A stretch of 64,000 nt of DNA from Nanobdellota archaeon. GTDB taxonomy: Archaea; Nanobdellota; Nanobdellia; Pacearchaeales; GW2011-AR1. The notes below the pieces were generated by a model. It was not told the DNA's origin, ran no database searches, and worked only from the letters and a program-made list of their open reading frames with translations. Location of the stretch: positions 7,162 to 71,161 of the forward strand of contig JBBSZK010000008.1 in assembly GCA_038044745.1 (NCBI GenBank), written 5' to 3'. How positions within the stretch are numbered: the first letter of the stretch is position 1; every line of letters starts with the position of its first letter. This document shows, piece after piece, positions 5,770 through 48,882 of this stretch. The translations under genes were made by a program, and so were the position numbers.

Positions 5770-5790
5770 CTCTTTCTGGAGCCCACAAAA

Positions 5791-5798
5791 TTTATAAA
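5791..5798 (+). promoter_or_regulatory. TATA box TTTATAAA, 21 nt before ATG 5820
   Basis: Read directly. Confidence 0.6.
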
Positions 5799-5819
5799 TC
5801 AACTTCTGTGCTGATTAAA

Positions 5820-6917: not shown

Positions 6918-6958
6918 TAAAGGGACCTTGGTTTATCTCGTAGCAGGTTAGCTATAAG

Positions 6959-6966
6959 TTTATAAA
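6959..6966 (+). promoter_or_regulatory. TATA box TTTATAAA, 22 nt before ATG 6989
   Basis: Read directly. Confidence 0.55.
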
Positions 6967-6988
6967 CATTTTTTATAACCTTATGCAC

Positions 6989-7744
6989 ATGTCTCCGCAA
7001 AAGAAGCCAAAAATAATCGGCGTTATTCTCGCTTACAATGTAGCAAAAATGCTTCCACGCGCATTGCAACGAATTCCTAAGGGGGTCCTTGACGATATAA
7101 TTGTGTTGGATGACGGGTCAAAAGACGGCACATACGAAGTTGCGAAGAGCCTCGGTTTGAAGGCGTTCAGACACGTCCCCAATCGAGGGTACGGCGGCAA
7201 TCTCAAGGCAGGTATGCAAAAGGCACTGGAAATGGGCGCAGATTATATCGTAGAAATTCACGGCGATGGGGCACAATTTAATCCCGAATCAATTCATTTT
7301 GCGATGCCCTATATGAAAGAAGGAAAAGCGCAACTCATTCTCGGCTCTCGGTTCTCGGTCCCCCGGAAAGCGCTTGAGAACGGCATGCCCCTCATACGTT
7401 TTGTGGCAAATCGGTTCCTTAGCTTCTTCGACAGAATTATCCTCGGTTTAAAGCTTACCGAGTTTCACACGGGGTTCAGAATCTATGGTCGAAAACTTCT
7501 TGAAAAAGCCCCCTACGAAGCAAACACCAACGATTATCTATTTAGTTTTCAAATCATTGCGCAAGCCGCGTACTACCGAGTTGTCGTAAAAGAAGTGCCC
7601 GTAGAGGCCGATTATAAAGGAGAACACACCTCTCACGCGCTCAAAGGGGCAGCATGGTATGCAATTAGGACCTTTGGAGTACTCGCACAATTCATCTTGG
7701 CTAAGTTTGGAATTTACCACAATAAAGTATTTAAGAGGCACTAA
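6989..7744 (+). CDS. family 2 glycosyltransferase (dolichyl-phosphate sugar synthase-like)
   Basis: GT-A signature IIGVILAYNVAKML...VLDDGSKDGT. ATG 6989 fits the TATA (6959-6966) spacing better than ATG 6983. Confidence 0.75.
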   Translation: MSPQKKPKIIGVILAYNVAKMLPRALQRIPKGVLDDIIVLDDGSKDGTYEVAKSLGLKAFRHVPNRGYGGNLKAGMQKALEMGADYIVEIHGDGAQFNPESIHFAMPYMKEGKAQLILGSRFSVPRKALENGMPLIRFVANRFLSFFDRIILGLKLTEFHTGFRIYGRKLLEKAPYEANTNDYLFSFQIIAQAAYYRVVVKEVPVEADYKGEHTSHALKGAAWYAIRTFGVLAQFILAKFGIYHNKVFKRH

Positions 7745-7757
7745 TCGAGACAAGCAC

Positions 7758-8990
7758 ATGACGGACCTCAAATGCAGATCATGTGGATATGAGGGGCTCA
7801 ATCGATTTCTAGAGTTAGGTAATATTCCTCCCGTAAATGCCTTTATCTCTGAAAGTGAAATCGCTTCTGAAAAGGCGTATCCTCTCAACCTTGCATATTG
7901 CCCCCATTGTTTTCTTGTCCAATTAGAACAAATTGTCCCACCCGAAGACCTTTTCAGGAATTATTTACATCTTTCTGCAGGTTCTCAAACAAACGTGAGT
8001 CATCTCAAGGAAGTCGCAGACTATTTGAGCATCAAAATGGGAATCGATGCAACAAAAAAAGTCCTTGAAATTGGTTCAAATGATGGCACGCTCCTTGCTT
8101 TTTTCAAACAACATACACAAAACGTTGTGGGTGTCGACCCTGCATTAAACTTGAAAAAAGCAAATGAAGACCGCGGTATAGATTACGTCGCAGAGTTCTT
8201 TAACACGGGCACTGCTTCAAGAATAGTAAAAGAAAAAGGAAAATTTGACCTAATTGTAGCTCTTAACGTAATTCCCCATACGCCGGATAACATTGATTTG
8301 CTCAAAGCCGCACGAATTGCATTAACCAATGCAGGAACGCTCGTAATGGAAGGGGTCTACGCGCTAGAAACAATCCTTGACGGAGAGTTCGATACCATCT
8401 ATCACGAACACGTTTATACGTTCTCACTCCATTCGCTCCTATCAACGTTCCGAATGGCGGGTTTGAAAGTAGTCGACGTAGAAAGAATTCCAACACAAGG
8501 AGGCTCACTGCGCGTCTTCGCAATGAAAGAAGAATACGCCGGACCAGTCTCTTCTTCAGTTAGTAATCTTCTCAAAAAAGAAAAGGAAACAGGATTCGCA
8601 AATGAAGAACTGTACAGAAACGTGGGAAAGAAAGTCACCGAATATAGGGCTAGACTCAGAGAACTACTTGAAAATGAAAAGAAGATTAACGGAAAACTTA
8701 TCGGGCTTGGCGCTCCCGCACGAGGGGTAGTTATTATGAATTATTGTTCAATAACTCCGAACGATCTAGAATATCTTATTGACGACACCCCGCTCAAGAT
8801 TGGAAAAGTGGCTCCGGGCGTTCATGTCCCTGTGAAGTCATGGGATGCGCTCAACAACAGCGATGAAAAAACTTTCTTGCTTCTCTCATGGAATTACAAA
8901 GACCATCTCATATCAAAACTCCAACAACGCGTAAAAAAGGGCAGAGTGATTATACCCTTTCCCAAGTTGGAGGTTATTTCATTTGGTTGA
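7758..8990 (+). CDS. SAM-dependent NDP-sugar C-methyltransferase-like (TylCIII/NovU type: N-terminal Zn-ribbon, methyltransferase domain, C-terminal domain)
   Basis: CRSCGYEGL...C-PHCFLVQL Zn ribbon, then VLEIGSNDG SAM motif, then a C-terminal GAPARG domain. Paralogous to 13219-14439. Confidence 0.7.
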   Translation: MTDLKCRSCGYEGLNRFLELGNIPPVNAFISESEIASEKAYPLNLAYCPHCFLVQLEQIVPPEDLFRNYLHLSAGSQTNVSHLKEVADYLSIKMGIDATKKVLEIGSNDGTLLAFFKQHTQNVVGVDPALNLKKANEDRGIDYVAEFFNTGTASRIVKEKGKFDLIVALNVIPHTPDNIDLLKAARIALTNAGTLVMEGVYALETILDGEFDTIYHEHVYTFSLHSLLSTFRMAGLKVVDVERIPTQGGSLRVFAMKEEYAGPVSSSVSNLLKKEKETGFANEELYRNVGKKVTEYRARLRELLENEKKINGKLIGLGAPARGVVIMNYCSITPNDLEYLIDDTPLKIGKVAPGVHVPVKSWDALNNSDEKTFLLLSWNYKDHLISKLQQRVKKGRVIIPFPKLEVISFG

Positions 8991-32393: not shown

Positions 32394-35117
32394 ATGGAAA
32401 ACCTTTCTGTATCGTCAGAAGAACGACTCATCGGAGAACGAAAAGAGAAGCTCATTTCATTTGCAAAACGGAACGTTTCTGCAATGGGGTATGTATTTCT
32501 CGCTTTAGTGGTTTTCATAGCGATCAAAATTCGCACGGCAAATCTTCCTGGGCTTAAAGATATAACAACGGGAGATTGGACACTTGGCCCCGATTTGGAC
32601 CCTTTCTTGTTCCTTCGCTGGGCAAAACACATAGTCGAAAATGGCAGTCTCATGGTCTTGGATACTATGCGATACGTCCCTCTTGGATTTGACACTTCGT
32701 ACGAACTAAACCTTCATGTTTATTTGATGGTCTGGTTTGATAAAATTGCAAGCATATTCGGTTCAACGTCAATAACCCACTCCGCAGTACTTTATCCTGT
32801 TTTTATGTTCGCGCTTTCAGTAATTGCTTTCTTTTTCATGACGAGGCTAATCTTCTCAAAACATATGGGCAAGTCATGGGCAACAACCTCCGCAATCGTA
32901 GCCGCGTTCTTGCTAACAGTCACCCCCGCGTTGTTGCCCCGAACTATTGCAGGTATTCCTGAAAAAGAAGCAAGCGGAATTCTCTTCCTCTTTCTCGCGT
33001 TCTACTTTTTCATGGCAGGATGGGGCGCAAAGAAAGGGATGCACAAGTATCTCTTAGGTTTTCTTGCGGGCGCCTCGACAGCCGTCATGGGTCTCGTGTG
33101 GGGGGGATATTTGTACATACTCATAACTGTCGGCCCCCTCATATTTTTCTCATTCGCGTTGGGACAAATGGATCGCGAAAGGAAATATTTCTACGCAACG
33201 TGGCTCGTTACCACAATGGTTATTCTTTTTCTGGGGACTAAACGATATTCATTATCTGAGCTGCTCTTTTCAACGACAACAATCCCCGTCGTGCTCATGT
33301 TAATCGTTTTAATTGTAGACTCATTAGTTCATGAAACAAATTTCCTTCGTAGAATCCCCAGATATAAAATTTTGAATCTTCCTCGACCCTTGCTTTCTCT
33401 TCTTATCACGATTGGATGTGGTCTGCTTTTCGCTCTCGTCTTTTTTGGACCAGACTATATCGTGCACAACGTGCTTGCCCTCAAAAAATTTCTCATAACC
33501 ACAGGCACCGACAGAGTAAGCGTCACGGTCGCAGAAAATAGACAGCCCTACTTCACCGAATGGGCTGCCAGTTTCGGACCTTTCTTTGCCAATTTTCCGC
33601 TACTTTTCTGGATGTTTTTTGTAGGATCAATTGTTGCATTTTATCACGCGATTGCATCGTTTGACAAAAAATCTCGCCTAATAATGGTCGCCGCCTTCAC
33701 ATTTATGCTTATTTCGTTAGCATTCAGCAGATACTCTCCCACAAGCCTCTTTAATGGAACTAACTTCGCAAGCCTCGCCTTCTATGCCCTCGGTCTTCTT
33801 GTCTTTTTAGGTGTTGGGGGAAAATACTATTTCAAGTACCATTCTGCAAACGAACTCGATCGATTACGCGCTATCAATTTCAATTTCATGCTGTTGCTCT
33901 GCTTCTTTATTATAAGCATACTCTCGGCAAGAGGCGGTGTCCGCCTCATCATGATGCTCGTACCTGCTGCGTCAATATTAGGGGCGTATCTTGTGGTTGA
34001 AGTGGCGCGCTGGGCTCACACATCCTATAAATCAAAGTCCTCTTCAAAATACCTTTCAGTGTTTTGCGCTGCGCTTTTAATCTTGAGCTTATGTTTCGTG
34101 GGATACTCGTTTTACAACACTTCGCTGATATCTGCCCAAGGGTATGTTCCCAGCATTTATACTCAGCAATGGCAGAAAGCAATGGCTTGGACACGAGATA
34201 ATACCGCGCAGGAGGCCGTTTTTGGTCATTGGTGGGACTATGGATATTGGGTTCAAAGTATGGGCGAACGTGCAACTGTTCTCGACGGAGGAAATGCAAA
34301 GGCCTACTGGAACCACATGATGGGGAGATATGCACTTACAGGCCCGAGCAACGAGCAAGCACTAGACTTCTTGTACTCCCATAACACGACTCATTTTCTT
34401 ATTGATCCGACCGATATTGGCAAGTACGGCGCTTTCTCAAGTATAGGTTCGGACAAAAATTATGACCGAACTAGTTTTATATCGACCTTTAATAAGGATG
34501 TAAACCAAGTTCTCGAAAAAAAGAATTCAACCGTTTTTGTTTACACAGGCGGAATTCCGACTGATGATGACATTCTCTATATGCTCAATGGCACGCAACT
34601 CTTCCTACCCAAAGGAAACGCAGCACTTGGCGCAATCCTTATAGAAAAAGATTCTATCACGGGAGAACTTACTCGTGCGCCCGACGCAGTCTTTTTCTAT
34701 AAAGGAAATCAGTATCTTATTCCTTTAAGGTACGCATTCGATGAAAAACTAGTAGACTTTAAAGAGGGTTTGGATGCAGGCATATTTATCATGCCTCGAA
34801 TTGTTAGCGGCGCGAATGGGCTCCAGATTCAAGATGAAGGTTCGCTTCTGTACCTCAGCAATCGCACAGTACATTCGCAGGTTGCACGCCTCTACCTATT
34901 CCAAGAAGAGAACGGCCTTTTCAAGCTCGTGCATTCAGAAGATGATCCTCTCGTAACTCAGTTGAGATTAAGCGTCCCCGATTTCAAAGGAGACTTTGTT
35001 AACTATGATACGGTGCGTGGTCCTATACGTATATGGGAAATTCATTACCCTACTGATATGACGGTCAAGAGCGAATACCTCTCGGAAGAATGGCCCGCAG
35101 AACTCTTCAGAACATAA
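32394..35117 (+). CDS. aglB: archaeal oligosaccharyltransferase AglB (STT3 homolog)
   Basis: 907 aa. About 13 TM helices, then GHWWDYGYWVQ (the WWDYG motif) and a C-terminal globular domain. Confidence 0.9.
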   Translation: MENLSVSSEERLIGERKEKLISFAKRNVSAMGYVFLALVVFIAIKIRTANLPGLKDITTGDWTLGPDLDPFLFLRWAKHIVENGSLMVLDTMRYVPLGFDTSYELNLHVYLMVWFDKIASIFGSTSITHSAVLYPVFMFALSVIAFFFMTRLIFSKHMGKSWATTSAIVAAFLLTVTPALLPRTIAGIPEKEASGILFLFLAFYFFMAGWGAKKGMHKYLLGFLAGASTAVMGLVWGGYLYILITVGPLIFFSFALGQMDRERKYFYATWLVTTMVILFLGTKRYSLSELLFSTTTIPVVLMLIVLIVDSLVHETNFLRRIPRYKILNLPRPLLSLLITIGCGLLFALVFFGPDYIVHNVLALKKFLITTGTDRVSVTVAENRQPYFTEWAASFGPFFANFPLLFWMFFVGSIVAFYHAIASFDKKSRLIMVAAFTFMLISLAFSRYSPTSLFNGTNFASLAFYALGLLVFLGVGGKYYFKYHSANELDRLRAINFNFMLLLCFFIISILSARGGVRLIMMLVPAASILGAYLVVEVARWAHTSYKSKSSSKYLSVFCAALLILSLCFVGYSFYNTSLISAQGYVPSIYTQQWQKAMAWTRDNTAQEAVFGHWWDYGYWVQSMGERATVLDGGNAKAYWNHMMGRYALTGPSNEQALDFLYSHNTTHFLIDPTDIGKYGAFSSIGSDKNYDRTSFISTFNKDVNQVLEKKNSTVFVYTGGIPTDDDILYMLNGTQLFLPKGNAALGAILIEKDSITGELTRAPDAVFFYKGNQYLIPLRYAFDEKLVDFKEGLDAGIFIMPRIVSGANGLQIQDEGSLLYLSNRTVHSQVARLYLFQEENGLFKLVHSEDDPLVTQLRLSVPDFKGDFVNYDTVRGPIRIWEIHYPTDMTVKSEYLSEEWPAELFRT

Positions 35118-39578: not shown

Positions 39579-41114
39579 ATGTCCTCTAAATCGGCAGAAT
39601 CGATTAAGCTTTGGCTCAAAGATAATCATAATGCCCTATTTATTTTGATCTTGGTCTTCTCTTTTCTCGTCAGACTTTATTTTTTTGCCAACGCGTACAG
39701 CCAGCCACTTTGGTGGGATGAGGCTGAATACATGGCTACTGCAAAACATTGGGCATTTGGCGTGCCTTACGATATCAATCCTCAACGCCCCCCTCTTTTT
39801 CAGTTGGCCGCAATACCCTTTCTTTGGTTCGGCCTTGGCGAGGGTTCACTTAAGTTCTTCCTCGTCCTTCTTCCTTCGGTTTGTACGATAGGTCTTGTCT
39901 ACTTCGTTGGACGAGAACTGTTTGGGAAAAGAATTGCACTTATTGCAACAGCCGCCTCCTCGGTGGTGTGGTCTTTTCTCTTCTGGAGTATTCGATTTCA
40001 GCCAGATTTCTTTTCCCTCAGTTTCCAACTTCTTTCAGTTTTGTTTTTCTGGAAAACATTTAAGGAAGGGAAAAAATCGTTCGCAATTCTTACGGGGGTT
40101 TTCATCGCGTTAGCATTTTACTTTAAAATTTCAGCATTGCTCGTTCCACTATCTTTTCTAATATTCATTTTATTCAAGGACGGATTTTTATTCATTAAAA
40201 ACAAAAATTATTGGCTAATCTTTCTTTCATTTCTCCTCGCTCTAATACCCTTCGGTATATGGCAGTATGTTCTTTTCGGAAATCCCGTTGCGTTCGCACC
40301 TTCTTATATCGGAGGAACAGGAATCGGACAGGGATGGGAACTGGGATGGACGGTTATGAACTTTTTCTATCAACTCCCCAAACCCTTCTTCTTTGCTCTA
40401 TTTCTGGTCGGCATTGCTCTTTCTCTGTTACATATAGGGCTCTCGGCAGACCTGTATCTCAAGAATAAAGAGCGGAGACTCGACCCCTCTTTGTTCTCAC
40501 TGATTCTATTGTTTGTGATGGTCTGTTTTTATGTCTTTTACATACGGGGAATAATAGAAGACCGGTGGGTTTTTCTCATGATCCCCTTCATTATGTACTT
40601 CTCAGCGAAGGGGCTCGATACGATCGCAGAAAAGACAAAACAATTACACCCAAAAGCCCCTCTCGTGGTAATACTTCTTGCACTCCTCTTTCTTGCGTAT
40701 GTACAAGTGCAACACGCGCATTCGTTGATAGAAGTAAAGAAAACGTCTTACCTCCCCGTTAAAGAAGCTTCTCTATGGATTAAGCAAAACTCAGTTCCTG
40801 ACGATACAATACTTAGTAATTCCTATACACAAGCAACGACTTATGCAGAGAGAAAAATTCTACCCTATCCTGCACTTGTAAGAAACGAAAGCGACAGTTA
40901 TTCATACATGCCTTCAAAGAAGGAAATGCTTGACGAACTTGTAAATGAGAGTCATCCGAAATATTTAATGGTTTCAGTGTTCGAAAGACATCCCGATTGG
41001 ACACAGGACTGGTTAAACGAAAACCAGCCAAGGTTAAAGCCCGTGCAAGCCTACTTTTCCGATGCACAAAAGACACAAGCAATGTTAATCGTCTACGAGA
41101 TAAGCTACGTTTAG
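39579..41114 (+). CDS. GT-C fold glycosyltransferase (ArnT/PMT_2-like)
   Basis: 511 aa, polytopic. First loop WWDEAEY. C-terminal soluble domain. Confidence 0.7.
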   Translation: MSSKSAESIKLWLKDNHNALFILILVFSFLVRLYFFANAYSQPLWWDEAEYMATAKHWAFGVPYDINPQRPPLFQLAAIPFLWFGLGEGSLKFFLVLLPSVCTIGLVYFVGRELFGKRIALIATAASSVVWSFLFWSIRFQPDFFSLSFQLLSVLFFWKTFKEGKKSFAILTGVFIALAFYFKISALLVPLSFLIFILFKDGFLFIKNKNYWLIFLSFLLALIPFGIWQYVLFGNPVAFAPSYIGGTGIGQGWELGWTVMNFFYQLPKPFFFALFLVGIALSLLHIGLSADLYLKNKERRLDPSLFSLILLFVMVCFYVFYIRGIIEDRWVFLMIPFIMYFSAKGLDTIAEKTKQLHPKAPLVVILLALLFLAYVQVQHAHSLIEVKKTSYLPVKEASLWIKQNSVPDDTILSNSYTQATTYAERKILPYPALVRNESDSYSYMPSKKEMLDELVNESHPKYLMVSVFERHPDWTQDWLNENQPRLKPVQAYFSDAQKTQAMLIVYEISYV

Positions 41115-41124
41115 TTTCCTAATA

Positions 41125-41132
41125 TTTAAATA
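41125..41132 (+). promoter_or_regulatory. TATA box TTTAAATA, 21 nt before the asnB ATG 41154
   Basis: Read directly. Confidence 0.6.
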
Positions 41133-41153
41133 CGAACTAAGGCAACATCGCGT

Positions 41154-42980
41154 ATGTGCGGCATAGCAGGGTTTACCTGGGCAGATTCTTCACTAATCAA
41201 GAAGATGACTCAAATAATCAAGCATAGGGGTCCTGACGATGTAGGGTTTCATGTGGCCTTAGGAATATCTTTGGGCCATAGGAGGTTGAGCATCATCGAT
41301 TTATCCCCCAAGGGGCATCAACCAATGTTCAATGAAAATAGAAACATTGCGGTAATCTTCAACGGGGAGATTTGGAATTATAAAAAACTAAAAGAAAATC
41401 TCGTCGAGAAAGGGCATTTATTTAGAGGGGCCTCTGATACCGAAGTTATAGTGCATGGCTATGAATCCTACGGAGAAAAAATTTGTTCTATGCTTGAAGG
41501 TATGTTTGCCTTTGCACTTTATGATCTGAAAAAGAGAAAACTTCTTCTTGCAAGGGACAAGCTCGGTAAAAAGCCGCTTTATTATACCGAAACAAAGAAA
41601 GGATTACTGTTTGCATCAGAAATAAAATCGCTTACCGTTGATTCTCTCCCTCTCTCTCTTGATAGCGCGACACTATCTGACTACCTCTCTCAACGATTCT
41701 CCTCGAAGGATAGAACGATGTTCGATAAAATAAAAAAAGTAACGCCGGGAAGTTATATTATCTATAAGGATAAAAAATTAGAATCAAAAAGATATTACTC
41801 TCTCCCGGAGTTTAACGTAAGAAGCGAACCTCTTATAAAAAAAGCAGATTCGTTAATCAAGGATGCAATTCAAAAAAGACTTATGTCGGACGTACCCATA
41901 GGAGTTTTTCTCTCAGGGGGTCTCGATTCAAGCGCAATCGTGGCGTATATGTCCCAGATGTCCTCTAACATAAAGACCTTTTCGGTCGCTTTCAATAGCA
42001 AAGTAGACGAATCGAAGTATGCTCGAATTATCGCAGAAAAATTCAAGACAGAACATCACGAAATTAGAGTAGATTCTGATCTTCTACACTATCTTCCCGA
42101 AGTAATATGGCATCTTGATGAACCTCTTGCAGATCCCGCCTGTCTTCCCACATATTTTCTTTGTCGAGAAGTATCAAAACATGTAAAAGTCGCATTATCG
42201 GGAGAAGGCGGGGACGAAATCTTTGGGGGATATCAAAGTTTCAATTATATTCCTGAGATAAAATTTATTCAAAATCTTCCAAGGCCCTTTAGATCGGCCT
42301 TTGCAGCATATGCATTCGCCATCGCAAAATACAAAACGTATCCAGAAAAACATAAGTTTCTCGCAATTGCTAATATTCTCAAGAAAACGTCTTTAAAAGA
42401 ATCGTTTAAGGAGCTTTTTTATTTCGCGTTTGATACAAAAGAAAGGTTAGCACTATTTCCAAGAGCATCAGAAGAAGATGCTTTTGACCGTATCTTTGCA
42501 GAGTCTTCTTCATTAGAGGGGGCGGCTCAAGCTTATTATTTCAAGGAATGGCTGCCAAATGACCTTCTCATGAAGGCCGATAAAATGAGCATGGCCTTCG
42601 GTTTGGAGGTGCGAACCCCCTTTCTTGATCAAGATCTTCTCGAATATTTTTCTGGCCTAAACCCGCAAGAGAAGCGAAAAAGAAAACTTTTCAAACAAGT
42701 AGTCGCGAATTATCTCCCTCCCGAGATTCTAAACAAAAAGAAACAGGGTTTCACACTTCCCCTATTTGAATGGTTTGGAAATAGAGAAATACTAGAACGA
42801 GTTCGTCCCTTTCTTGAAAGATTAAAAAAAAGAAACATTTTTTCAGAGGAAGTCATCGAAGCTCTTTTGCAAAACGCCACCGCATTTAAAAATGAACATA
42901 AAATTTGGGTATTGCTTAATTTTGAAATTTGGTATGAACTATATATGGAAAAAATCCCTTTGAAGGAGATAAATCTATGA
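41154..42980 (+). CDS. asnB: asparagine synthase (glutamine-hydrolysing)-like amidotransferase
   Basis: N-terminal MCGIAGF nucleophile and SGGLDSS PP-loop. Confidence 0.85.
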   Translation: MCGIAGFTWADSSLIKKMTQIIKHRGPDDVGFHVALGISLGHRRLSIIDLSPKGHQPMFNENRNIAVIFNGEIWNYKKLKENLVEKGHLFRGASDTEVIVHGYESYGEKICSMLEGMFAFALYDLKKRKLLLARDKLGKKPLYYTETKKGLLFASEIKSLTVDSLPLSLDSATLSDYLSQRFSSKDRTMFDKIKKVTPGSYIIYKDKKLESKRYYSLPEFNVRSEPLIKKADSLIKDAIQKRLMSDVPIGVFLSGGLDSSAIVAYMSQMSSNIKTFSVAFNSKVDESKYARIIAEKFKTEHHEIRVDSDLLHYLPEVIWHLDEPLADPACLPTYFLCREVSKHVKVALSGEGGDEIFGGYQSFNYIPEIKFIQNLPRPFRSAFAAYAFAIAKYKTYPEKHKFLAIANILKKTSLKESFKELFYFAFDTKERLALFPRASEEDAFDRIFAESSSLEGAAQAYYFKEWLPNDLLMKADKMSMAFGLEVRTPFLDQDLLEYFSGLNPQEKRKRKLFKQVVANYLPPEILNKKKQGFTLPLFEWFGNREILERVRPFLERLKKRNIFSEEVIEALLQNATAFKNEHKIWVLLNFEIWYELYMEKIPLKEINL

Positions 42981-43996
42981 ATTCAAAGAAAGACCTTCCA
43001 AGGGTAAGCTTTATTCTCGGTATTCTTAACGCTGAACGAACTCTAGAAGAATGTTTAAACGGCATCTGTATCCAAGACTATCCTCGCGATTATTTTGAGG
43101 TAATAATAATCGATGGCGGTTCAACCGACAAGACTCTGCAAATTATCGATTCCTTCATGCACAAAGAAAAGAATATCTCTCTTCTCCATAATCCGAAAAA
43201 ACTTTCAGAAGGTCGTGGCATGAGCAAGGACATGGGAATACAAAAAGCAAAAGGAGATATTGTAATCTTGCTCGATCATGATAACTTAATTTCAGACCCT
43301 CGCTGGCTGAGGGGGATAGTACTTCCCTTTAGAAATAAGCAGGTTATGGCCTCTCAATCCCTTTTAGAGTTCAGAAAGGAGGACTCAAATTTTCTCAAAT
43401 ATATAAATGCAGCAGGGGTTGAAGACCCCTTCGCGATACCCTACTCCCTCGTTGCACAGGTGCAGTTATATCCCCATAAGTTCCAATTAGAAGAAAATGC
43501 CTATTATCTCCACAGACTTAATCCAAATTCAGTGCTCTTTGGAGGAGCAAATGGCTGTGCGTTCGTAAAAGAAGTTTTTGAAAAAATCGGAGGGTACACA
43601 CGAGATGTAGATGTTTTTGCAAAAATGGCCGAACATCGCATGCTTGTCGCAGTCCCTAAGCACGTGAAGTTGTACCATAAGACCGCAAGCAATCTATGGA
43701 CATTCATGAAGAAGAAAGGGCTCTATTTCTATCGTTTCATAAATAAGGAATATGCTGAAAAAGATTTTCAATGGGTCAAACCTGGGTTCGCAAACACGCT
43801 TCGATTTTTCCTCATGGTCGCGTCAAATCTTTCGTTCGCGGTACCGAGCGTCTTGGCTTTTCAAAGAACGTTTAAAACTGGGCGACTCTTTTGGCTCCTA
43901 CACCCCTTTTATGTCTTCTTCGTTACGCTCGAGTATGGATTAATAACCCTCTTAAAACTAAAAAACTTCTTCTCGTACGCCCGCATCAAATCTTAA
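42977..43996 (+). CDS. family 2 glycosyltransferase
   Basis: VSFILGILNAERTL...IIIDGGSTD...LDHDN GT-A motifs, followed by C-terminal TM helices. Confidence 0.75.
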   Translation: MNSKKDLPRVSFILGILNAERTLEECLNGICIQDYPRDYFEVIIIDGGSTDKTLQIIDSFMHKEKNISLLHNPKKLSEGRGMSKDMGIQKAKGDIVILLDHDNLISDPRWLRGIVLPFRNKQVMASQSLLEFRKEDSNFLKYINAAGVEDPFAIPYSLVAQVQLYPHKFQLEENAYYLHRLNPNSVLFGGANGCAFVKEVFEKIGGYTRDVDVFAKMAEHRMLVAVPKHVKLYHKTASNLWTFMKKKGLYFYRFINKEYAEKDFQWVKPGFANTLRFFLMVASNLSFAVPSVLAFQRTFKTGRLFWLLHPFYVFFVTLEYGLITLLKLKNFFSYARIKS

Positions 43997-45098
43997 CCGC
44001 ACGTACTACTATATCTAATCCGCCCTTGTTTATTTGTCGATAGCTGCGATTAGCTCTTCGGCCGAACGTAAGAAAGTTTTTGCTCTTTCCAAGGAAGTAC
44101 TTATAGAACAAGTGAACGTAGAGGTTAGCTAGAAGCGTCCAGCACTCCACCACGTTAAAATGTTCTATTTTAAAACCAGTTTTTTTCATCAAGTCGCGCA
44201 CAGAGTGGTTTGTGTACTGGCGTTCATGCTGCATATAGGTAACGGGGTGTAGGTAGTGCAAGAAGTGGTTATTGGGCACAGAGATAATAAGTTTACCCCG
44301 GGGTTTTAAGAGAGAACGAATGCCCATCAGAACCCTATCATCGTTCTTTAAATGTTCGAGTACCTCACACATAACTATCTTATCATAATAGTTCTTTTTT
44401 AGAAGATTATCTTTTGTGATATCTCCTTCAACTAGCTTTGTTTTGTGTAGATAATGGGCTGCCTTTTTAAGTTTCGGACCATCTATATCGACAGTCCAGC
44501 ATTCTCTAACCTTATCTTCAAGAATCATCTCGATTTCAGGAATGTTCGATATGCCGATATTCAAAACTTTATCTGTTTTTTTCGGATCAACAAGGTTAAC
44601 AAAATAATCGATGCGATCTTTTCCAAGGGGCGCAATTGATTTAAAAAACGCACGATAATTCTCTCGTAACTTTTCAAGGTTCGCAAGGTCAATTTCTGGT
44701 ACCGTTTTGTATGTTTTTAAAAGTTCAGGGGTTATTTTTTTAACATCGACAAAGCAAGAAATTCCTGTTTTCTTTGCAAAGAACTCGCCAAATTCTACTT
44801 GGTGATCGTTAATATGCTCCCCATACTTTTTTTGTCGAGGAACCGTAATGACTGGCTTTTGATAGTTCATAGAAACCTCTATAAGAGATGTAGCCGATTG
44901 AACAATAACAAGTCTCGCTTGGCGATAATACTCGTCCAAATTCGGCGCAAAATCAAAAAATTTAATATTTTTTGGCTTGTAAGTCCCTGCTCCAATCTGA
45001 GCAACTATACTTTCTTTAACATAGGGGGCAATTTCATCAATTCTTCGGATAAGCCTATCGAACTGTCCGTCATGTGTACCGACCGCAACAAAAATCAT
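43986..45098 (-). CDS. Alg13-like (Glyco_tran_28_C/PssE-type) domain fused to a class I SAM methyltransferase
   Basis: N-terminus: IFVAVGTHDGQFDRLI...VIVQSATSLIE...PVITVPRQKKYGEHINDHQ. C-terminus: VLNIGISN...MCEVLEHL...LKPRGKLIISVPN. ATG 45098 overlaps the Alg14-like stop (ATGA). Confidence 0.65.
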   Translation of the reverse strand: MIFVAVGTHDGQFDRLIRRIDEIAPYVKESIVAQIGAGTYKPKNIKFFDFAPNLDEYYRQARLVIVQSATSLIEVSMNYQKPVITVPRQKKYGEHINDHQVEFGEFFAKKTGISCFVDVKKITPELLKTYKTVPEIDLANLEKLRENYRAFFKSIAPLGKDRIDYFVNLVDPKKTDKVLNIGISNIPEIEMILEDKVRECWTVDIDGPKLKKAAHYLHKTKLVEGDITKDNLLKKNYYDKIVMCEVLEHLKNDDRVLMGIRSLLKPRGKLIISVPNNHFLHYLHPVTYMQHERQYTNHSVRDLMKKTGFKIEHFNVVECWTLLANLYVHLFYKYFLGKSKNFLTFGRRANRSYRQINKGGLDIVVRAVKI

Positions 45099-45577
45099 AA
45101 AACACCGCCCCAATATTCTGACTTTTTACCATATTTGTGCATCATTTCTCGGTGTTGTACCAAGAATCTATCTGCAAAAAGGTAACAAAAGCGCGCAGAC
45201 CAGTTTGGGGTTTTGACTCGAATAATGGTGTCCATAAATACAACAGGTATAGAAAGGAGCCTTCCAGCGATAACCGCAGGGATTGAAAGCTGCGCACCGT
45301 TGGTGACTATCGCTTCAACGCGTTCTCCTTTAAAAAGTCGAATCATTGCAATGAGCGTCTTGAGGTACCTAAATGGATTAAGTTTAAGCACATCAGGCGC
45401 AAAATAAAACGCAGGAAATATTCCCAAGAACGCGCGTGGAACAAGACCTCTTTTAAAAAAGTCTTCAGTAATGAGAATTGCCCGATTATCTTCCAAAACC
45501 TTCTCGGTAAAAATAAGTTTCATCTGACCTAAATGGCCTCCCTTTGAGGCAACTAATGCGATGTTCATTGTTTCCAA
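45095..45577 (-). CDS. Alg14-like (PssD/Cps14F-type) glycosyltransferase membrane-anchor subunit
   Basis: 160 aa. IALVASKGGHLGQM matches the Alg14 GSGGHxxEM region. Followed immediately by the Alg13-like gene. Confidence 0.65.
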   Translation of the reverse strand: METMNIALVASKGGHLGQMKLIFTEKVLEDNRAILITEDFFKRGLVPRAFLGIFPAFYFAPDVLKLNPFRYLKTLIAMIRLFKGERVEAIVTNGAQLSIPAVIAGRLLSIPVVFMDTIIRVKTPNWSARFCYLFADRFLVQHREMMHKYGKKSEYWGGVL

Positions 45578-46356
45578 ATACGATGATGTACTTTTAACCC
45601 TTGCGGGAGCGAATCATAAGCGCGCACTATAAACTGAAGCGGGGAGTACGCAAGGCGCAAACGAATGACTGCGAGAAACATCTCAAGAGACGCCTTGATG
45701 AGCTTAATCTTAGAATCGTCCTTACTCTCCCATATTGTTGACGTTTCAACAACCGAGAAACCTTTTTTTCTAAGCTTATAAAGAAGGTCTATATCAAAGG
45801 CCCATTTTGTAATCTGCATTTTATCGTGGACGTACATAATCGATTCTCGTCGGAATAGTTTTGCTCCGCACTGGGTATCTCTATAGGGAAATCCGAAGAG
45901 GCTCCGCACGACAAGGTTGAAAATAAAACTCTTGAACCTAAAGAGCAAACTCTGCCTGGTGACGTCGCTGTCCCTTCTCCAACGGGAAGCAATAATGCCC
46001 TGGTGCCTTCCTATCCGTTCTATAAGCATCGCAAAAGCCACAGGAGGCGTAGCCATGTCAGCATCAACAAATCCAATAAGGTCATTGGGACGCTGCAAGG
46101 CATCTTTGAACCCTTCCATCACTGCAAATCCCTTTCCTCCTTGCTTAAACTCAATCAGGCGAATGCGCTTGTTTGCACGGCTATATCTTTGAACAACGGG
46201 GGCAGTATGGTCTTGTGTATTATTGACTACAACGACAATTTCATAGTCCAATGCATCTTTTAACCTTAATTGCTCAAAATAAGACCCATACTGTTCAAGA
46301 AACAAAGGTATCCTTTTTTCTTCATTCTGAGCAGGAACCACGATTGAAACGCGCAT
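45565..46356 (-). CDS. family 2 glycosyltransferase (dolichyl-phosphate hexose synthase, Alg5/DPM1-like)
   Basis: VSIVVPAQNEEKRI...GFVDADMATP. Short soluble GT-A of 263 aa. Confidence 0.7.
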   Translation of the reverse strand: MRVSIVVPAQNEEKRIPLFLEQYGSYFEQLRLKDALDYEIVVVVNNTQDHTAPVVQRYSRANKRIRLIEFKQGGKGFAVMEGFKDALQRPNDLIGFVDADMATPPVAFAMLIERIGRHQGIIASRWRRDSDVTRQSLLFRFKSFIFNLVVRSLFGFPYRDTQCGAKLFRRESIMYVHDKMQITKWAFDIDLLYKLRKKGFSVVETSTIWESKDDSKIKLIKASLEMFLAVIRLRLAYSPLQFIVRAYDSLPQGLKVHHRIWKQ

Positions 46357-46377
46357 GTATTTCGGTATAGAAAAGCG

Positions 46378-46385
46378 TTTTTAAA
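46378..46385 (-). promoter_or_regulatory. internal TATA box (TTTAAAAA on minus), 21 nt before ATG 46356
   Basis: Read directly. Confidence 0.5.
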
Positions 46386-46408
46386 ACTACCTAGAACAAG
46401 CTAGAAAC

Positions 46409-47674
46409 CTACTTATCGGGTCGCGGTAACAAATCTTTCAGAGCAATTGCGAGCGTATACGCCAAAAAGAGAGCACCAGAACAAACTAAGGCTAAGCTAA
46501 ACTCCCTTTGCGTTTCATGGAAGAGGTAGAAAAGGATAATCTGTATGACGGGGAAGAGCAGGAGGAAGAAAGCGTGTTTTCCAATACGATTAATCGAAAT
46601 CTTGTAGAGGACAATAATGTTCGCAATTGAAAAGAACGAATAGGCAAGGCCCATAGTGAAAAGGAACTCCGCACCCCCCAAATAAGCATCCGAACCAAGA
46701 CCGATTATCCAAATTATCTCTTGCGGGATGAGGAGATAGAACACAAGGGCCGTCAAGGCGATAACCATCACAAACGCAATCGCTTTCTTCAGAATACGAG
46801 ACGTTTTATGTCCCTGTTCGAATCCCTCTGTCGAGAGGGGTAGCATGGCCTTGGCTACGGCCGCGCTAGAGAAGAATATTACCTTGCCTATGAGGGAGAT
46901 GAAAGCAAATTCGCCCGCATCTATCGGATTGAAGAATTTACGCGCAAAAAGGATATCGGTGCTGTAAAGAAGTACTACCGCCGTTATCGCAGCCAACACG
47001 GTCAGATTGCTTTTAGTAAAGTAAGAAGAGGTCTCTGTTTGACGAGTGTGTGCAACAACATCCCGTAACACGAACAAGCTTATAACGAATGCGAACGCAA
47101 GCCCAACAATTACTCCTATCATTGCCCCGTACACTCCAAGCCCAACAATAACTAAAGTAAGTGCAATGATTATCTTTAAGAAGGACTCTATAAGCAAACT
47201 GCTCCCAAGTGCAAAAAACCGCTTTTTACCTTGAATAATTCCTCGAGTAACGGGAATGGTAAACAATACAAAAAGGATAATTCCTGTAACGCCAACAAGC
47301 CCAGCAGGAATGGAAAAAAATGAGGAAAGGAAGGGAGTACAGGCTAGTAAAAGAATGAATCCTAAGAAAGCGAATGCGATTGATCTGCGCAAACTTCGAA
47401 TGAGGAGGTCTTTTATCTTGCCCTGTTCACGACGAGCATTGAATGCACTCGTGTATCTCGCAACGACGGTTTGTACGGCTTCAGTTGGAATGCTAAACAA
47501 ATACACGAAAGACATGAGGGCAGCAAGCACACCGTAATCAGAAGGGCCAAGCGTTCGAGCCATAGACATTTGGAATATGTAGTTAAGCACGTTGTAAAAT
47601 CCAAACATCACAAAGAGAACAACGCTCCCCCGAAATAATTCATCTTTTCCTATGGAAAAAAGTTTAGAAAACAT
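46409..47674 (-). CDS. Wzx-like flippase (MOP superfamily), second copy
   Basis: 421 aa, about 12 TM helices, embedded in the glycosylation operon. Confidence 0.6.
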   Translation of the reverse strand: MFSKLFSIGKDELFRGSVVLFVMFGFYNVLNYIFQMSMARTLGPSDYGVLAALMSFVYLFSIPTEAVQTVVARYTSAFNARREQGKIKDLLIRSLRRSIAFAFLGFILLLACTPFLSSFFSIPAGLVGVTGIILFVLFTIPVTRGIIQGKKRFFALGSSLLIESFLKIIIALTLVIVGLGVYGAMIGVIVGLAFAFVISLFVLRDVVAHTRQTETSSYFTKSNLTVLAAITAVVLLYSTDILFARKFFNPIDAGEFAFISLIGKVIFFSSAAVAKAMLPLSTEGFEQGHKTSRILKKAIAFVMVIALTALVFYLLIPQEIIWIIGLGSDAYLGGAEFLFTMGLAYSFFSIANIIVLYKISINRIGKHAFFLLLFPVIQIILFYLFHETQREFSLALVCSGALFLAYTLAIALKDLLPRPDK

Positions 47675-48686
47675 GTGAAAATATGCCTTCTCTGAAAATA
47701 AAGAATCCTAAAAGTATAACGACGAGCTGAAACGTCCAGATTATGTAAACAGAACGTTTTTCGGTTGCTTTAATGCCTATCTTTTGCTGGAGGTACAGCG
47801 TCAAATGCGTAAGCCCATATACCCGCGGATGTAGGAGCCCTAAGCTTCCATCTAACGCAGGTTTTCCAAACGAAGGCTTAATGAATGCTCCTCGGGACTT
47901 GAGAAACACCTCAACCATGATAGGCATGAAGAAGAACATCGCAATTTTTTCAAAATTCCCCAAGATTGCCATCATCGCAATCATACCTCCAATCGGATAG
48001 GTTAACGAGTCTCCAGGGAATATTTTCGAAGGGAAGAAGTTGTACACTAAAAATGCAACCAGGGCCATAACAAAACAGAGCCCCAAAAGAGCAAGCCATG
48101 TGTTTCCTGTAAGGTACGCGACAAGGCTAAGTGAGCCAAGAATAAGTACTCCCTGTCCCGCCTCGAGTCCATTGAAACCTGCAAGAAAATTGAACGTGGT
48201 TGCGGCCCCAACAATCCCAAGCGGTATCAAAACGAGCGGGTACAAGAGCCCCAAGTCCACAAGTCCAAGAAAAGGGATATCCATGGTGGCCCTTCCCGCG
48301 TTAATAACGACAAGAGGCAACGATGCAACAATCACAAGAATGATGCGCGAGCGCCGTGAAAGTCCTCCTCGTTGCCAACCCAATAAATCATCCATAAATC
48401 CTATACCGCAGAGCAGAACAAGCGTCACCAAGAGCCCGAACATTTCAACAAGGTAGGATGAAGAGTGTAAGTAAAATACGCGGTATGCAATGAAAATTAA
48501 CATGGACACTACAAAAACACCCACAACTGCCGCACCACCGGAGCCCGCAACCAAGGGTTTGCTATATTTGTTCACATCGGGCCAAACCAATTTAATTTGG
48601 TGCGCCTTACGAATCCAATAAGGCACAATCAGCAATGCAAGGAGAAAACTCAAGAAGGGGACACTAAGGAGTAGCGCGTCAGCCAT
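47664..48686 (-). CDS. aglH: UDP-GlcNAc:dolichyl-phosphate GlcNAc-1-phosphate transferase (AglH/Alg7, MraY-like)
   Basis: Polytopic 340 aa with GFMDDLLG and NFLAGFNGLEAG motifs of the polyprenyl-phosphate HexNAc-1-P transferase family. Confidence 0.8.
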   Translation of the reverse strand: MADALLLSVPFLSFLLALLIVPYWIRKAHQIKLVWPDVNKYSKPLVAGSGGAAVVGVFVVSMLIFIAYRVFYLHSSSYLVEMFGLLVTLVLLCGIGFMDDLLGWQRGGLSRRSRIILVIVASLPLVVINAGRATMDIPFLGLVDLGLLYPLVLIPLGIVGAATTFNFLAGFNGLEAGQGVLILGSLSLVAYLTGNTWLALLGLCFVMALVAFLVYNFFPSKIFPGDSLTYPIGGMIAMMAILGNFEKIAMFFFMPIMVEVFLKSRGAFIKPSFGKPALDGSLGLLHPRVYGLTHLTLYLQQKIGIKATEKRSVYIIWTFQLVVILLGFFIFREGIFSHVF

Positions 48687-48722
48687 TATAATCGAGAGTC
48701 TCCTTTTTTTTGCAGAATCATC

Positions 48723-48854
48723 TTACAACTCGTTAACCAAGTTTTCGGCATTCTCAATTTCAGACAACGTTCTACGTTCGCCACAATAGGGACAGACGTC
48801 TTTAATGGTGGGAGTCTCAAACCGGTAGCCGCACAGAGTACATAGGGTCTTCAT
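48723..48854 (-). CDS. 43-aa zinc-ribbon protein (below the ORF-track cutoff)
   Basis: Hand translation: MKTLCTLCGYRFETPTIKDVCPYCGERRTLSEIENAENLVNEL. It has a CxxC..x15..CxxC pattern. TATA 48875-48882 lies 20 nt upstream of the ATG. Confidence 0.5.
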   Translation of the reverse strand: MKTLCTLCGYRFETPTIKDVCPYCGERRTLSEIENAENLVNEL

Positions 48855-48874
48855 GAGGCTAGATCTTTCAAAGT

Positions 48875-48882
48875 TATTTAAA
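48875..48882 (-). promoter_or_regulatory. TATA box (TTTAAATA on minus), 20 nt before ATG 48854 of the zinc-ribbon ORF
   Basis: Read directly. Confidence 0.55.

Follow-up and report, generated by a model that had tools for sequence, protein, structure and literature searches.

The occurrence of a split Alg14/Alg13-like pair beside an Alg7-type gene in an archaeal genome raises the question of whether such a module is relevant to how the eukaryotic GlcNAc2 core originated, as a first-pass annotation had suggested, and of what the module assembles in its host. The locus lies in a window of 64,000 nucleotides (the whole stretch of DNA analyzed) from a Pacearchaeota-like DPANN archaeon with a genome of 0.75 Mb (87% complete). 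The six-gene order proposed for the minus strand at positions 43986-48854 was confirmed, with all six ORFs in place: a zinc-ribbon ORF, an Alg7/AglH-type gene, a Wzx-like flippase, a GT2, the Alg14-like half, and the Alg13-like half. Intergenic spacing in operon order is 36, -11, 52, -13, and -19 nt for the ORFs as listed; the homologue-supported ATG codons at 45568 (Alg14-like) and 45098 (Alg13-like) give ATGA overlaps with the stop codons of the GT2 and the Alg14-like gene, respectively. The TATA-like box upstream, conserved with identical spacing in a 91%-identical relative (L094), is a likely candidate for the operon promoter, from which the six genes appear to be transcribed as a single unit.

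Table 1. Features of the N-glycosylation locus and its surroundings (positions within the window).
Feature	Position	Strand	Evidence or remark
AglB (STT3-type oligosaccharyltransferase)	32394..35117	+	PF02516, E 1.2e-10; PF21436, E 2.3e-5
Convergent linked operon	39579..43996	+	PMT_2-type GT-C, AsnB-like, GT2; Pfam and NCBIfam matches
PMT_2-type GT-C	39579-41114	+	
AsnB-like glutamine amidotransferase	41154-42980	+	
Neighboring GT2	42977-43996	+	
Class I SAM-dependent methyltransferase domain, fused to Alg13-like half	43986..44633	-	PF13489, E 8e-12
Alg13/PssE/EpsF-like C-terminal (nucleotide-sugar-binding) half of split GT-B	44634..45098	-	PF04101, E 7.5e-12; gene as listed, including the methyltransferase, 43986-45113
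Alg14/PssD/EpsE-like N-terminal (acceptor-side) half of split GT-B	45095..45568	-	PF08660, E 1e-10; ORF as listed 45095-45577
GT2, polyprenyl-phosphate-sugar synthase type (Dpm1/AglJ/ArnC/GtrB-like)	45565..46356	-	PF00535, E 2.4e-18
Wzx/MOP-type (AglR-like) flippase candidate	46409..47674	-	PF13440, E 5e-8
AglH/Alg7-type polyprenyl-phosphate GlcNAc-1-P transferase (GT4/PNPT)	47664..48686	-	PF00953, E 1.4e-30
Zinc-ribbon ORF, first operon gene	48723..48854	-	43 aa, two CxxC pairs, CxxC...CPYCGE
TATA-box-like element GTTTAAATAAC	48872..48882	-	Read by eye; ~20 nt upstream of zinc-ribbon ORF

The PssD and PssE models are the best-scoring NCBIfam matches of the two halves; PssD/PssE had been named in the first-pass annotation among the alternative homologs. 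The Alg14-like half matches PssD (NF041549) at E 1.5e-25 and 90 bits (cut-off 110), against 42 bits for the Pfam Alg14 model, and the Alg13-like half matches PssE (NF041548) at E 6e-27 and 94 bits (cut-off 120), against 46 bits for Pfam Glyco_tran_28_C; both fall below the curated cut-offs and are thus divergent members. The lack of a Glyco_tran_28_C match, raised beforehand as a possible objection, was not observed at the sequence level, PF04101 scoring above its cut-off, and the Alg13-like half is the sole homologue of this type (Alg13/MurG) in the genome. The description of the upstream half as an Alg14-like membrane subunit holds for its identity but not for the membrane: the protein has no TM anchor, and the one stretch of hydrophobic residues (97-115) corresponds to the conserved Rossmann core. 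It carries an S-K-G-G-H15 loop, of which G13, G14, and H15 are invariant in the family alignment, and its AF2 model (pLDDT 88.7) finds the MurG N-domain as best fold match (TMq 0.72).

Calling the last gene an Alg13-like catalytic subunit is similarly correct but incomplete, as it encodes a fusion protein: residues about 6-160 form the Alg13-like domain, and about 165-375 a class I SAM-methyltransferase. The latter has an atypical motif I (LNIGISNIPEIE), which is nevertheless kept within the family, and an aromatic-rich helix at its C-terminal end; the top Foldseek matches of its AF2 model (pLDDT 93.6) are SAM/SAH-bound class I methyltransferases (E 1e-13 to 1e-10). About 16 clusters show this fusion, and most relatives encode a separate orthologue of 216-222 aa downstream of the Alg13-like gene. 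The family-invariant G-G-H15 and other residues, together with confident models of the GT-B half-domain and the methyltransferase, suggest that these proteins are functionally competent.

To place the pair, ML trees were calculated for both halves, without Asgard sequences and with two sequences of Alg14 and one of Alg13 standing for the eukaryotes. In the Alg14 tree the archaeal family (100/89) falls inside a mainly bacterial EpsE/PssD clade (100/100) of Bacillota, Bacteroidota, and LAB-plasmid EpsE, as sister to the pNZ4000 EpsE group (96/90); eukaryotic Alg14 is found elsewhere, with Chloroflexota and Thermoplasmata near Methanomethylicota. In the Alg13 tree the family lies outside the clade holding yeast Alg13 (95/92), close to the root and next to a single Oscillospiraceae sequence (95/62, with weak SH-aLRT), a tentative position in which long-branch effects are possible. 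An AU test, framed after seeing the tree, rejected a clade of the family plus eukaryotes (delta lnL 37.3, p 0.024). In addition, the Alg13-like half contains a 4-residue insert, VPRQKKYGEHINDHQ ("PRxxxxxEH"), common to all EpsF/PssE-type sequences and absent from yeast Alg13.

We infer from these sequence comparisons that the split pair is a member of the mainly bacterial EpsEF/PssDE branch, outside the branch behind eukaryotic Alg13/14. The split architecture adjoining an Alg7-type gene and the matches to the Pfam Alg14 and Glyco_tran_28_C models would fit a eukaryote-proximal orthologue that could shed light on the archaeal ancestry of the eukaryotic initiation complex, but this reading is largely refuted, and we regard it as extremely improbable: the trees of both halves set them apart from eukaryotes, the AU test rejects a joint clade, the insert is of the EpsF/PssE type, the Alg14-type N-terminal TM helix is missing, and the split pair is patchily distributed (10 of 31 related genomes). 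In the trees of Meyer et al. [quoted passage not shown] Being of the bacterial type (PssD/PssE, EpsE/EpsF), the pair has little to say on the origin of eukaryotic N-glycosylation, and the proposed bearing on the GlcNAc2 core finds no support in the PssD/PssE scores, the trees, the AU test, or the insert. Of the two signs that the first-pass annotation had coupled, bacterial branching was found and recent transfer was not: the low identity to bacterial members (25-29%), the long stem branches of the family, and the conserved synteny among Pacearchaeota-like genomes indicate an old divergence without recent transfer.

The closest known systems are the split GT-B second-step glycosyltransferases PssD/PssE of Rhizobium leguminosarum, EpsE/EpsF of Lactococcus cremoris pNZ4000, and Cps14F/Cps14G of S. 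pneumoniae type 14. The archaeal pair shares with them adjacent, overlapping genes for proteins of about 150-160 aa in the order N-half then C-half, an N-half without a TM helix, the best curated scores, the fully supported Alg14-tree clade, and the Alg13-like insert; it differs in its archaeal host, its sub-threshold scores and low identity, the methyltransferase fused to its C-half, a lipid-priming operon partner that is an Alg7/AglH PNPT and not a PHPT "sugar transferase," and a linkage in relatives to AglB instead of Wzy/Wzz EPS machinery. The module resembles the eukaryotic Alg7 and Alg13/Alg14 enzymes of Dol-PP-GlcNAc2 synthesis in having an Alg7-type first enzyme and the GGH loop; in both systems the second enzyme is divided at the same place between its domains, and the acidic D116 stands where the Alg14 "VES" motif has Glu. 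Apart from the tree positions, TM anchor, and insert, the archaeal pair is unlike Alg13 in that the methyltransferase replaces the short Alg14-docking tail. Agl24 of Sulfolobus acidocaldarius is a single-chain archaeal chitobiose synthase, fused, and belongs to a Crenarchaeota/Bathyarchaeota clade that branches as the sister of Alg13/14 and EpsEF taken together (Meyer et al. 2022; PMC8993221). Both are archaeal GT-B enzymes of the MurG/Alg14-13 superfamily with a GGH motif, presumed to act after AglH on dolichol-linked GlcNAc; the published description of Agl24 sets it apart from the enzyme in the window, which is split and of the EpsEF type.

The AglH-type protein, the only PNPT in the genome, has ~8 or more hydrophobic segments and finds human DPAGT1/Alg7 as its best PDB match (E 1.6e-19, 74 bits; MraY 1e-5), with the DD, N(F/I)LAG(F/I)NGLEAGQ, and F(P/V)GD(S/T) motifs kept in the alignment. 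The flippase candidate has about 10-12 hydrophobic segments, and its position is kept in relatives. The GT2, which lacks a TM helix, best matches P. furiosus Dol-P-Man synthase (DPMS, 1e-7), ArnC, and GtrB in the PDB; its NCBIfam matches (PgfS, ArnC, AglJ) are all weak.

AglB had been described as near the operon; here the gene is ~9 kb away on the plus strand, unlinked, and does not belong to the same operon. In several relatives, by contrast, AglB is directly upstream of the module: L001 and L098 share the order SpoIIM-AglB-AglH-flippase-GT2-Alg14-like-Alg13-like-methyltransferase, and L003/L004 have AglB-flippase-GT2-Alg14-like-Alg13-like-methyltransferase, with AglH outside the operon. The trio of GT-C, AsnB-like enzyme, and GT2 also adjoins the module in L001, L003/L004, L094, and L095. 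As the module directly follows AglB in several relatives, its role in lipid-linked N-glycan assembly is well supported, and the earlier assignment to a dolichol-type pathway is strengthened. A secreted or lipid-anchored EPS-like polysaccharide would be in line with the clade shared with EPS/CPS enzymes and with the Wzx-like flippase; it is nonetheless a very unlikely product, since the locus contains no Wzy polymerase or chain-length regulator, AglB adjoins the module in those relatives, and initiation would be by an AglH/Alg7-type enzyme, against a PHPT sugar transferase in pNZ4000. Altogether, the locus probably represents the core of a Pacearchaeota-like DPANN protein N-glycosylation (agl) cluster with an EpsEF-type pair that diverged long ago from its bacterial relatives.

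We infer each step of the following pathway. AglH would transfer GlcNAc-1-P onto dolichyl phosphate at the cytoplasmic face. The two translationally coupled halves would form one GT-B enzyme of the PssD/PssE-EpsE/EpsF-Cps14F/G type, with the acceptor on the side of the Alg14-like half and the UDP-sugar on that of the Alg13-like half, and would add a second sugar (candidates are GlcNAc, Glc, Gal, and GlcA), most likely in beta-1,4 linkage by analogy with the characterized members, all of which to our knowledge form this linkage. The fused domain would then methylate a sugar on the growing lipid-linked glycan, the GT2 would add a further sugar or make a Dol-P-hexose donor, and the Wzx-like protein would flip the glycan; the neighboring GT-C may add a sugar outside the membrane, the AsnB-like enzyme may amidate a glycan sugar, and AglB would finally move the glycan onto Asn. 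GlmS and a UDP-sugar dehydrogenase were not found in the 87% complete genome, a gap in the supply of any UDP-sugar donor that weighs against this explanation; DPANN archaea may depend on a host.

A special case of this pathway, with the donor specified, would make the pair a chitobiose synthase that transfers GlcNAc from UDP-GlcNAc to GlcNAc-PP-Dol, yielding a eukaryote-like GlcNAc2 core by functional convergence with Alg13/14 and not by orthology. We consider this possible though somewhat doubtful. The Alg7-type transferase in the same operon, the pair being the sole MurG/Alg13-type enzyme of the genome, the invariant GGH loop common to MurG, Agl24, and Alg14, and the name beta-1,4-N-acetylglucosaminyltransferase given to a close homologue in one metagenome source (an automatic name only) argue for it, but PssDE and WelK use donors among UDP-Glc, UDP-Gal, and UDP-GlcA, with which the NCBIfam names agree. 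EpsEF and Cps14FG also belong to the characterized clade members using these donors (PMC8993221). The failure to find GlmS likewise speaks against a GlcNAc donor.

Haloarchaeal N-glycan assembly is Dol-P-based, and the acceptor could instead be a hexose-phosphodolichol made by the AglJ/Dpm1-like GT2, with AglH serving another glycan or step. The GT2 resembles polyprenyl-phosphate sugar synthases, and its gene always immediately precedes the Alg14-like one, to which it is ATGA-coupled here and fused in L098; the separate location of AglH in L003/L004, where the module follows AglB, weakens the coupling of AglH to the pair, and the bacterial EpsEF act on lipid-linked Glc (PMC8993221). We nevertheless judge this acceptor unlikely: exactly one AglH-type gene occurs in every genome checked, within the operon here and in L001, L094, and L098, and the GT2 might just as well provide the conserved neighboring GT-C with a Dol-P-sugar donor. 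Alg14-like halves are, moreover, fused promiscuously to neighboring enzymes elsewhere (GT4, Wzy, VanZ, radical SAM), so that the GT2 fusion is no proof of consecutive steps.

The proposed N-glycan pathway resembles that of Haloferax volcanii in the kinds of parts that cluster together (GT2, Wzx-like flippase, GT-C, class I methyltransferase, and AglB), although the parts are not demonstrably orthologous; the NCBIfam AglJ match is weak, at 33 bits (cut-off 325). In Haloferax volcanii, AglJ and AglD are GT2 Dol-P-hexose synthases, AglR is Wzx-like, AglS is a GT-C, and the SAM methyltransferase AglP methylates a hexuronic acid of the N-glycan; the pathway is not known to include a split enzyme of the EpsEF type. 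As for the zinc-ribbon ORF, a protein of 91% identity is encoded at the same position in L094, and L098 has a clear homologue (CSKC...CPYCGE) between SpoIIM and AglB.

The six co-oriented minus-strand genes at 43986-48854 that the first-pass annotation had listed are borne out as ORFs, and the block looks like one operon, as had been proposed. Stop and start codons overlap as ATGA at both the 45568 and the 45095-45098 junctions, where alignment with homologues places the true starts of the Alg14-like and Alg13-like genes, the remaining junctions are short (-11, +52, and +36 nt), and a TATA-like box, GTTTAAATAAC, is found upstream of the zinc-ribbon ORF at a distance of about 20 nt. Scans for sigma-70 promoters and terminators found no enrichment. 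The zinc-ribbon ORF is kept in relatives: a locus designated L094 encodes a copy (5717-5845) that is 91% identical to the one in the window, and in another locus, L098, a 48-aa CxxC...CPYCGE zinc-ribbon homologue (778-924) is placed between SpoIIM and AglB. In at least two lineages, then, the agl operon is headed by a zinc-ribbon gene, which is absent from the related loci L001 and L003.

Genes of the probable minus-strand operon, in gene order
Feature	Position	Strand	Basis	Remark
Zinc-ribbon peptide, 43 aa	48723-48854	-	ORF	
GT4/PNPT membrane protein (AglH-like), 340 aa	47664-48686	-	ORF	
Wzx-like protein, 421 aa	46409-47674	-	ORF	
GT2, 263 aa	45565-46356	-	ORF	
Alg14-like protein, 157-160 aa	45095-45577	-	ORF	True start, ATG 45568
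Alg13-like (Glyco_tran_28_C) N-terminal and class I methyltransferase C-terminal, 370-375 aa	43986-45113	-	ORF	True start, ATG 45098

The split pair formed by the Alg14-like and Alg13-like halves is of the EpsEF/PssDE type, which bacteria have as well. For both halves the top NCBIfam model aligns over its full length, PssD (NF041549) with the Alg14-like half at 90.2 bits against a cut-off of 110 and PssE (NF041548) with the Alg13-like half at 94.3 bits against a cut-off of 120; judged by these scores, both are divergent members under the equivalog thresholds. The layout of PssDE/EpsEF is matched, with the N-half gene followed by the adjoining, ATGA-coupled C-half, which in relatives is a separate protein of 155-161 aa, and the pair of plasmid pNZ4000 has the same layout.

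Phylogenetic analysis was based on a reference set of bacterial, plasmid-encoded pairs, either characterized or annotated (Lactococcus pNZ4000 EpsE/EpsF, Lacticaseibacillus paracasei, and Alloyangia), 80 organism-named genome loci from a GTDB-wide scan (DPANN, Methanomethylicota, Nitrososphaerota, Thermoplasmata, Chloroflexota, Bacillota, and Bacteroidota), mammalian and yeast Alg14 from the protein database, a yeast Alg13 identical to PDB 2ks6/2jzc, and Escherichia coli MurG as the outgroup. The trees contain few eukaryotes and no Asgard sequences; the homologue search, seeded with yeast and human Alg14, returned almost only mammals and one yeast cluster, leaving the eukaryotes thinly sampled. 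The GTDB scan pattern (DxF[IF]VQW) excludes the family of the window's pair itself, a set of Pacearchaeota-like relatives that we refer to as the FLVQH subfamily, and close relatives outside the Pacearchaeota are possibly under-sampled, which is partly offset by a filter-free representative search.

In the Alg14 tree (63 rows; careful IQ-TREE analysis under LG+C20 PMSF), the family is monophyletic (support 100/89) within a 100/100 clade of EpsE/PssD sequences from Bacillota, Bacteroidota, and LAB plasmids together with two other DPANN sequences, with a stem of 1.0 substitutions/site, and its sister group contains the pNZ4000 EpsE (96/90). Pan and yeast Alg14 cluster together (96/95) elsewhere, among Chloroflexota/Thermoplasmata by Methanomethylicota, and forcing them together with the family costs a delta lnL of 37.3 (AU p 0.024). 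The Alg13 tree (56 rows) places the family (100/99) outside a 95/92 clade comprising yeast Alg13, Methanomethylicota, other DPANN, and Chloroflexota, with weak support for its exact position near the root. An Iainarchaeota sequence (L048) falls in the bacterial-type clade in both trees. A 4-residue insert in the Alg13-like half, "PRxxxxxEHxxDHQ" (VPRQKKYGEHINDHQ), is present in 13/13 members of the family, in 19/19 bacterial EpsF/PssE-type rows, in the Iainarchaeota sequence, and in locus L006 of genome G024, and absent from yeast Alg13, MurG, Methanomethylicota, the Chloroflexota group, and other DPANN; as aligned, it is a tree-independent character that agrees with both trees.

This sequence evidence from trees, insert, and model scores matches the picture drawn by Meyer et al. 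[quoted passage not shown] The first-pass annotation had considered the split pair relevant to the origin of the eukaryotic N-glycosylation core; the two trees and the AU test point away from the eukaryotic proteins, and the Alg14 tree and the insert point to the EpsEF/PssDE type. In the phylogeny that it had suggested, a grouping with the eukaryotes did not materialize, the alternative of a bacterial-type EpsE clade stands for the Alg14-like half, and the position of the Alg13-like half is weakly resolved. For the question of eukaryote origins this is a negative but useful result: finding a split pair next to an Alg7-type gene in an archaeon does not in itself amount to evidence for eukaryote-like ancestry. 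Recent horizontal transfer was also considered and rejected, given a local GC content of 0.40 (0.40-0.47 in the window), an identity of 25-29% between the pair and bacterial members, long stems, and synteny that is conserved in the lineage.

The Alg14-like half has an S-K-G-G-H15 loop that is invariant in the family, and its D116, replaced by E in some members, lines up with the glutamate of the Alg14 "VES" motif; these likenesses to eukaryotic Alg14 are unspecific, as the GGH loop and acidic residue are also found in MurG, Agl24 (the single-chain chitobiose synthase of Sulfolobus acidocaldarius), and EpsE. The AF2 model (pLDDT 88.7) has its best fold match in the MurG N-domain (TMq 0.72), and PDB sequence and profile searches with this half returned no solved Alg14 and a marginal MurG match. 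Whereas eukaryotic Alg14 carries an N-terminal membrane anchor, the window's protein has no N-terminal hydrophobic segment and begins at the first beta-strand (MNIALV...GGH), and the earlier label "membrane subunit" therefore does not apply in the eukaryotic sense. The absence of the anchor is weakly diagnostic, since the transmembrane domain of Alg14 is regarded as a later eukaryotic addition (Meyer et al. 2022; PMC8993221).

The AF2 model of the fusion protein (pLDDT 93.6) shows two Rossmann-type domains with a long helix (144-160) between them. Foldseek hits to this model are dominated at the top by SAM/SAH-bound class I methyltransferases, a list from which the fold of the N-domain is not separable, and its assignment to Glyco_tran_28_C draws on scores from Pfam and NCBIfam together with the model's secondary-structure pattern. 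The C-terminal domain scores above the cut-offs of several Pfam methyltransferase models and has its fold among the Foldseek hits. Its motif I is unusual (LNIGISNIPEIE), reduced from the usual GxGxG to G187-I-S-N and conserved in this form family-wide, and D209 of motif II and the EVLEH motif are invariant in the family; the domain is likely to be active. Fusion of the two domains is seen in about 16 sequence clusters; in most relatives two neighboring genes encode an Alg13-like protein of 155-161 aa and a methyltransferase of 216-222 aa. In L098 a distantly related methyltransferase gene (32 bits) sits between the Alg14-like and Alg13-like genes. Cotransfer of the methyltransferase with the pair from bacteria was rejected for the sample examined: of 80 EpsEF loci, none has a homologous methyltransferase gene within 3 kb. 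The methyltransferase ends in a family-conserved, aromatic-rich helix, WTLLANLYVHLFYKYFL (residues about 323-342 of the fusion; window 43986-44140), which is too weakly hydrophobic for a transmembrane segment (maximum Kyte-Doolittle value 1.04); the helix may serve to anchor, at the membrane interface, a complex with no other anchor of its own.

The AglH-like protein, the sole PNPT in the genome, is by sequence comparison nearer to Alg7/DPAGT1 than to MraY/WecA: it matches human DPAGT1/Alg7 with an E value of 1.6e-19 (74 bits) and MraY with 1e-5 (28.6 bits), scores with the NCBIfam models for WecA and MraY fall well short of their cut-offs, and the aligned PNPT motifs DD, NxLAGxNGLEAGQ, and FxGD are kept. 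The description of the GT2 as Alg5/DPM1-like is reasonable, the best solved relatives being the Pyrococcus Dol-P-Man synthase, ArnC, and GtrB, all with weak scores.

The genome (0.75 Mb in 13 contigs, 87% complete) belongs to a lineage in which the Alg14-like gene has a patchy distribution. It occurs in 10/31 related genomes, namely 7/9 of the genus (this genome counted), 1/10 from other genera of the family, and 2/12 from the rest of the order, and the closest named homologues of both halves are annotated as "Candidatus Pacearchaeota archaeon," which marks the organism as a Pacearchaeota-like member of the DPANN. Gene order in L001 is SecY-region, prefoldin, SpoIIM, AglB, AglH, flippase, GT2, Alg14-like, Alg13-like, and methyltransferase, followed by a convergent operon of GT2, AsnB-like amidotransferase, PMT_2-type GT-C, and GT9. 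The loci L003/L004 share this order with an operon that lacks AglH, a single AglH being encoded elsewhere in that genome; L094 (94% identical) is arranged exactly as the window; and L098 reads SpoIIM, zinc-ribbon homologue, AglB, AglH, flippase, GT2::Alg14-like fusion, methyltransferase, and Alg13-like. AglB immediately precedes AglH in L001 and L098; in the window's genus (the window and L094) it lies about 9 kb away on the other strand (32394-35117, plus strand, in the window). That the module builds an N-linked glycan is best supported by the direct adjacency to AglB seen in several relatives.

The convergent operon is found at 39579-43996 (plus strand) in the window, comprising a PMT_2-type GT-C, an AsnB-like glutamine amidotransferase, and a GT2, with a GT9 gene ahead. 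Together with GT9 it abuts the module in the window, L001, L094, and L095; in L003/L004 its first three genes do so and a GT4-type gene replaces GT9. A sugar carboxylate is a possible substrate of the amidotransferase. The parts of the module, the clade, and EpsE/EpsF pairs in DPANN were already known; not previously described, in the literature that we searched, are the Pacearchaeota-specific FLVQH subfamily, its conserved link to a dedicated methyltransferase (fused in the window), the conserved zinc-ribbon gene that opens the operon, and the AglB-AglH-flippase-GT2-pair-methyltransferase synteny.

In the pathway that we propose, AglH would prime Dol-P with GlcNAc-1-P, and the coupled halves would form one GT-B enzyme that attaches the second sugar through a beta-1,4 bond, the linkage made by all characterized members of the EpsEF/PssDE branch and of Alg13/14; the GGH loop and the fold are confirmed, and the activity is predicted from these and from the characterized homologues. 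The fused methyltransferase would then modify a sugar of the lipid-linked intermediate, the GT2 would add a further sugar or make the Dol-P-hexose donor for the adjoining, conserved GT-C, and the Wzx-like protein would flip the glycan for transfer by AglB. Members of the EpsEF/PssDE clade use UDP-Glc, UDP-Gal, or UDP-GlcA as donors, and Alg13/14 and Agl24 use UDP-GlcNAc. The 87% complete genome encodes no GlmS, the sole match being the GATase domain of the window's AsnB-like gene, and no UDP-glucose/ManNAc dehydrogenase above the cut-off, and GlmS and the dehydrogenases were detected in most or all of 14 control genomes; sugar precursors are therefore probably host-derived. The missing GlmS neither proves nor excludes use of UDP-GlcNAc by the pair.

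It is possible that the acceptor of the pair is instead a hexose-P-dolichol made by the always-adjacent GT2, as AglH is not always in the operon (L003/L004) and in L098 a single 421-aa protein combines the GT2 with the Alg14-like half (6001-7266, followed by a second stretch at 7263-8407). However, Alg14-like fusions are promiscuous: among the representative library matches P0290-P0399 of the wider EpsE/PssD family, this half is joined to GT4, GT2, Wzy-type ligase/polymerase, VanZ, B12-radical-SAM, and Alg13-like domains (with Alg13-like in either order), and fusion alone is therefore no proof of consecutive steps. These sequences suggest that glycan loci often carry the half-domain in fused form, and its recurrent fusion to neighboring enzymes hints that split GT-B halves are assembly points for glycan-building complexes.

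Returning to the AglH-primed route, fusions of the Rosetta-stone kind, GT2::Alg14-like in one lineage and Alg13-like::methyltransferase in another, suggest a four-enzyme, membrane-peripheral assembly. It seems to us improbable, though worth stating, that the split halves dock such an assembly (GT2, Alg14-like, Alg13-like, and methyltransferase) right after the Alg7-type enzyme to build a methylated, possibly GlcNAc-GlcNAc, N-glycan core, which would make the module a convergent counterpart of Alg7-Alg13/14, built from bacterial parts, in a host-dependent archaeon unable to make UDP-GlcNAc. DPANN archaea depend on surface contacts with their hosts, and to our knowledge their N-glycans have never been characterized. 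The operon and its AglB-linked versions in relatives provide a short list of parts, open to testing, for the pathway's initial steps; their interest is modest and lies mainly in giving biochemists a small system with which to start on DPANN N-glycosylation.

In L098, radical-SAM/SPASM and B12-radical-SAM genes follow the region of the pair. In L005 (1477-2423), from a genome of the same order (G026), a canonical "FxVQW" Alg14/Alg13-like pair without the EpsF-type insert is followed by an AsnB-like gene; this pair groups with Micrarchaeota and Woesearchaeota sequences and differs in type from that of the window, and two types of split pair therefore occur within one DPANN order.
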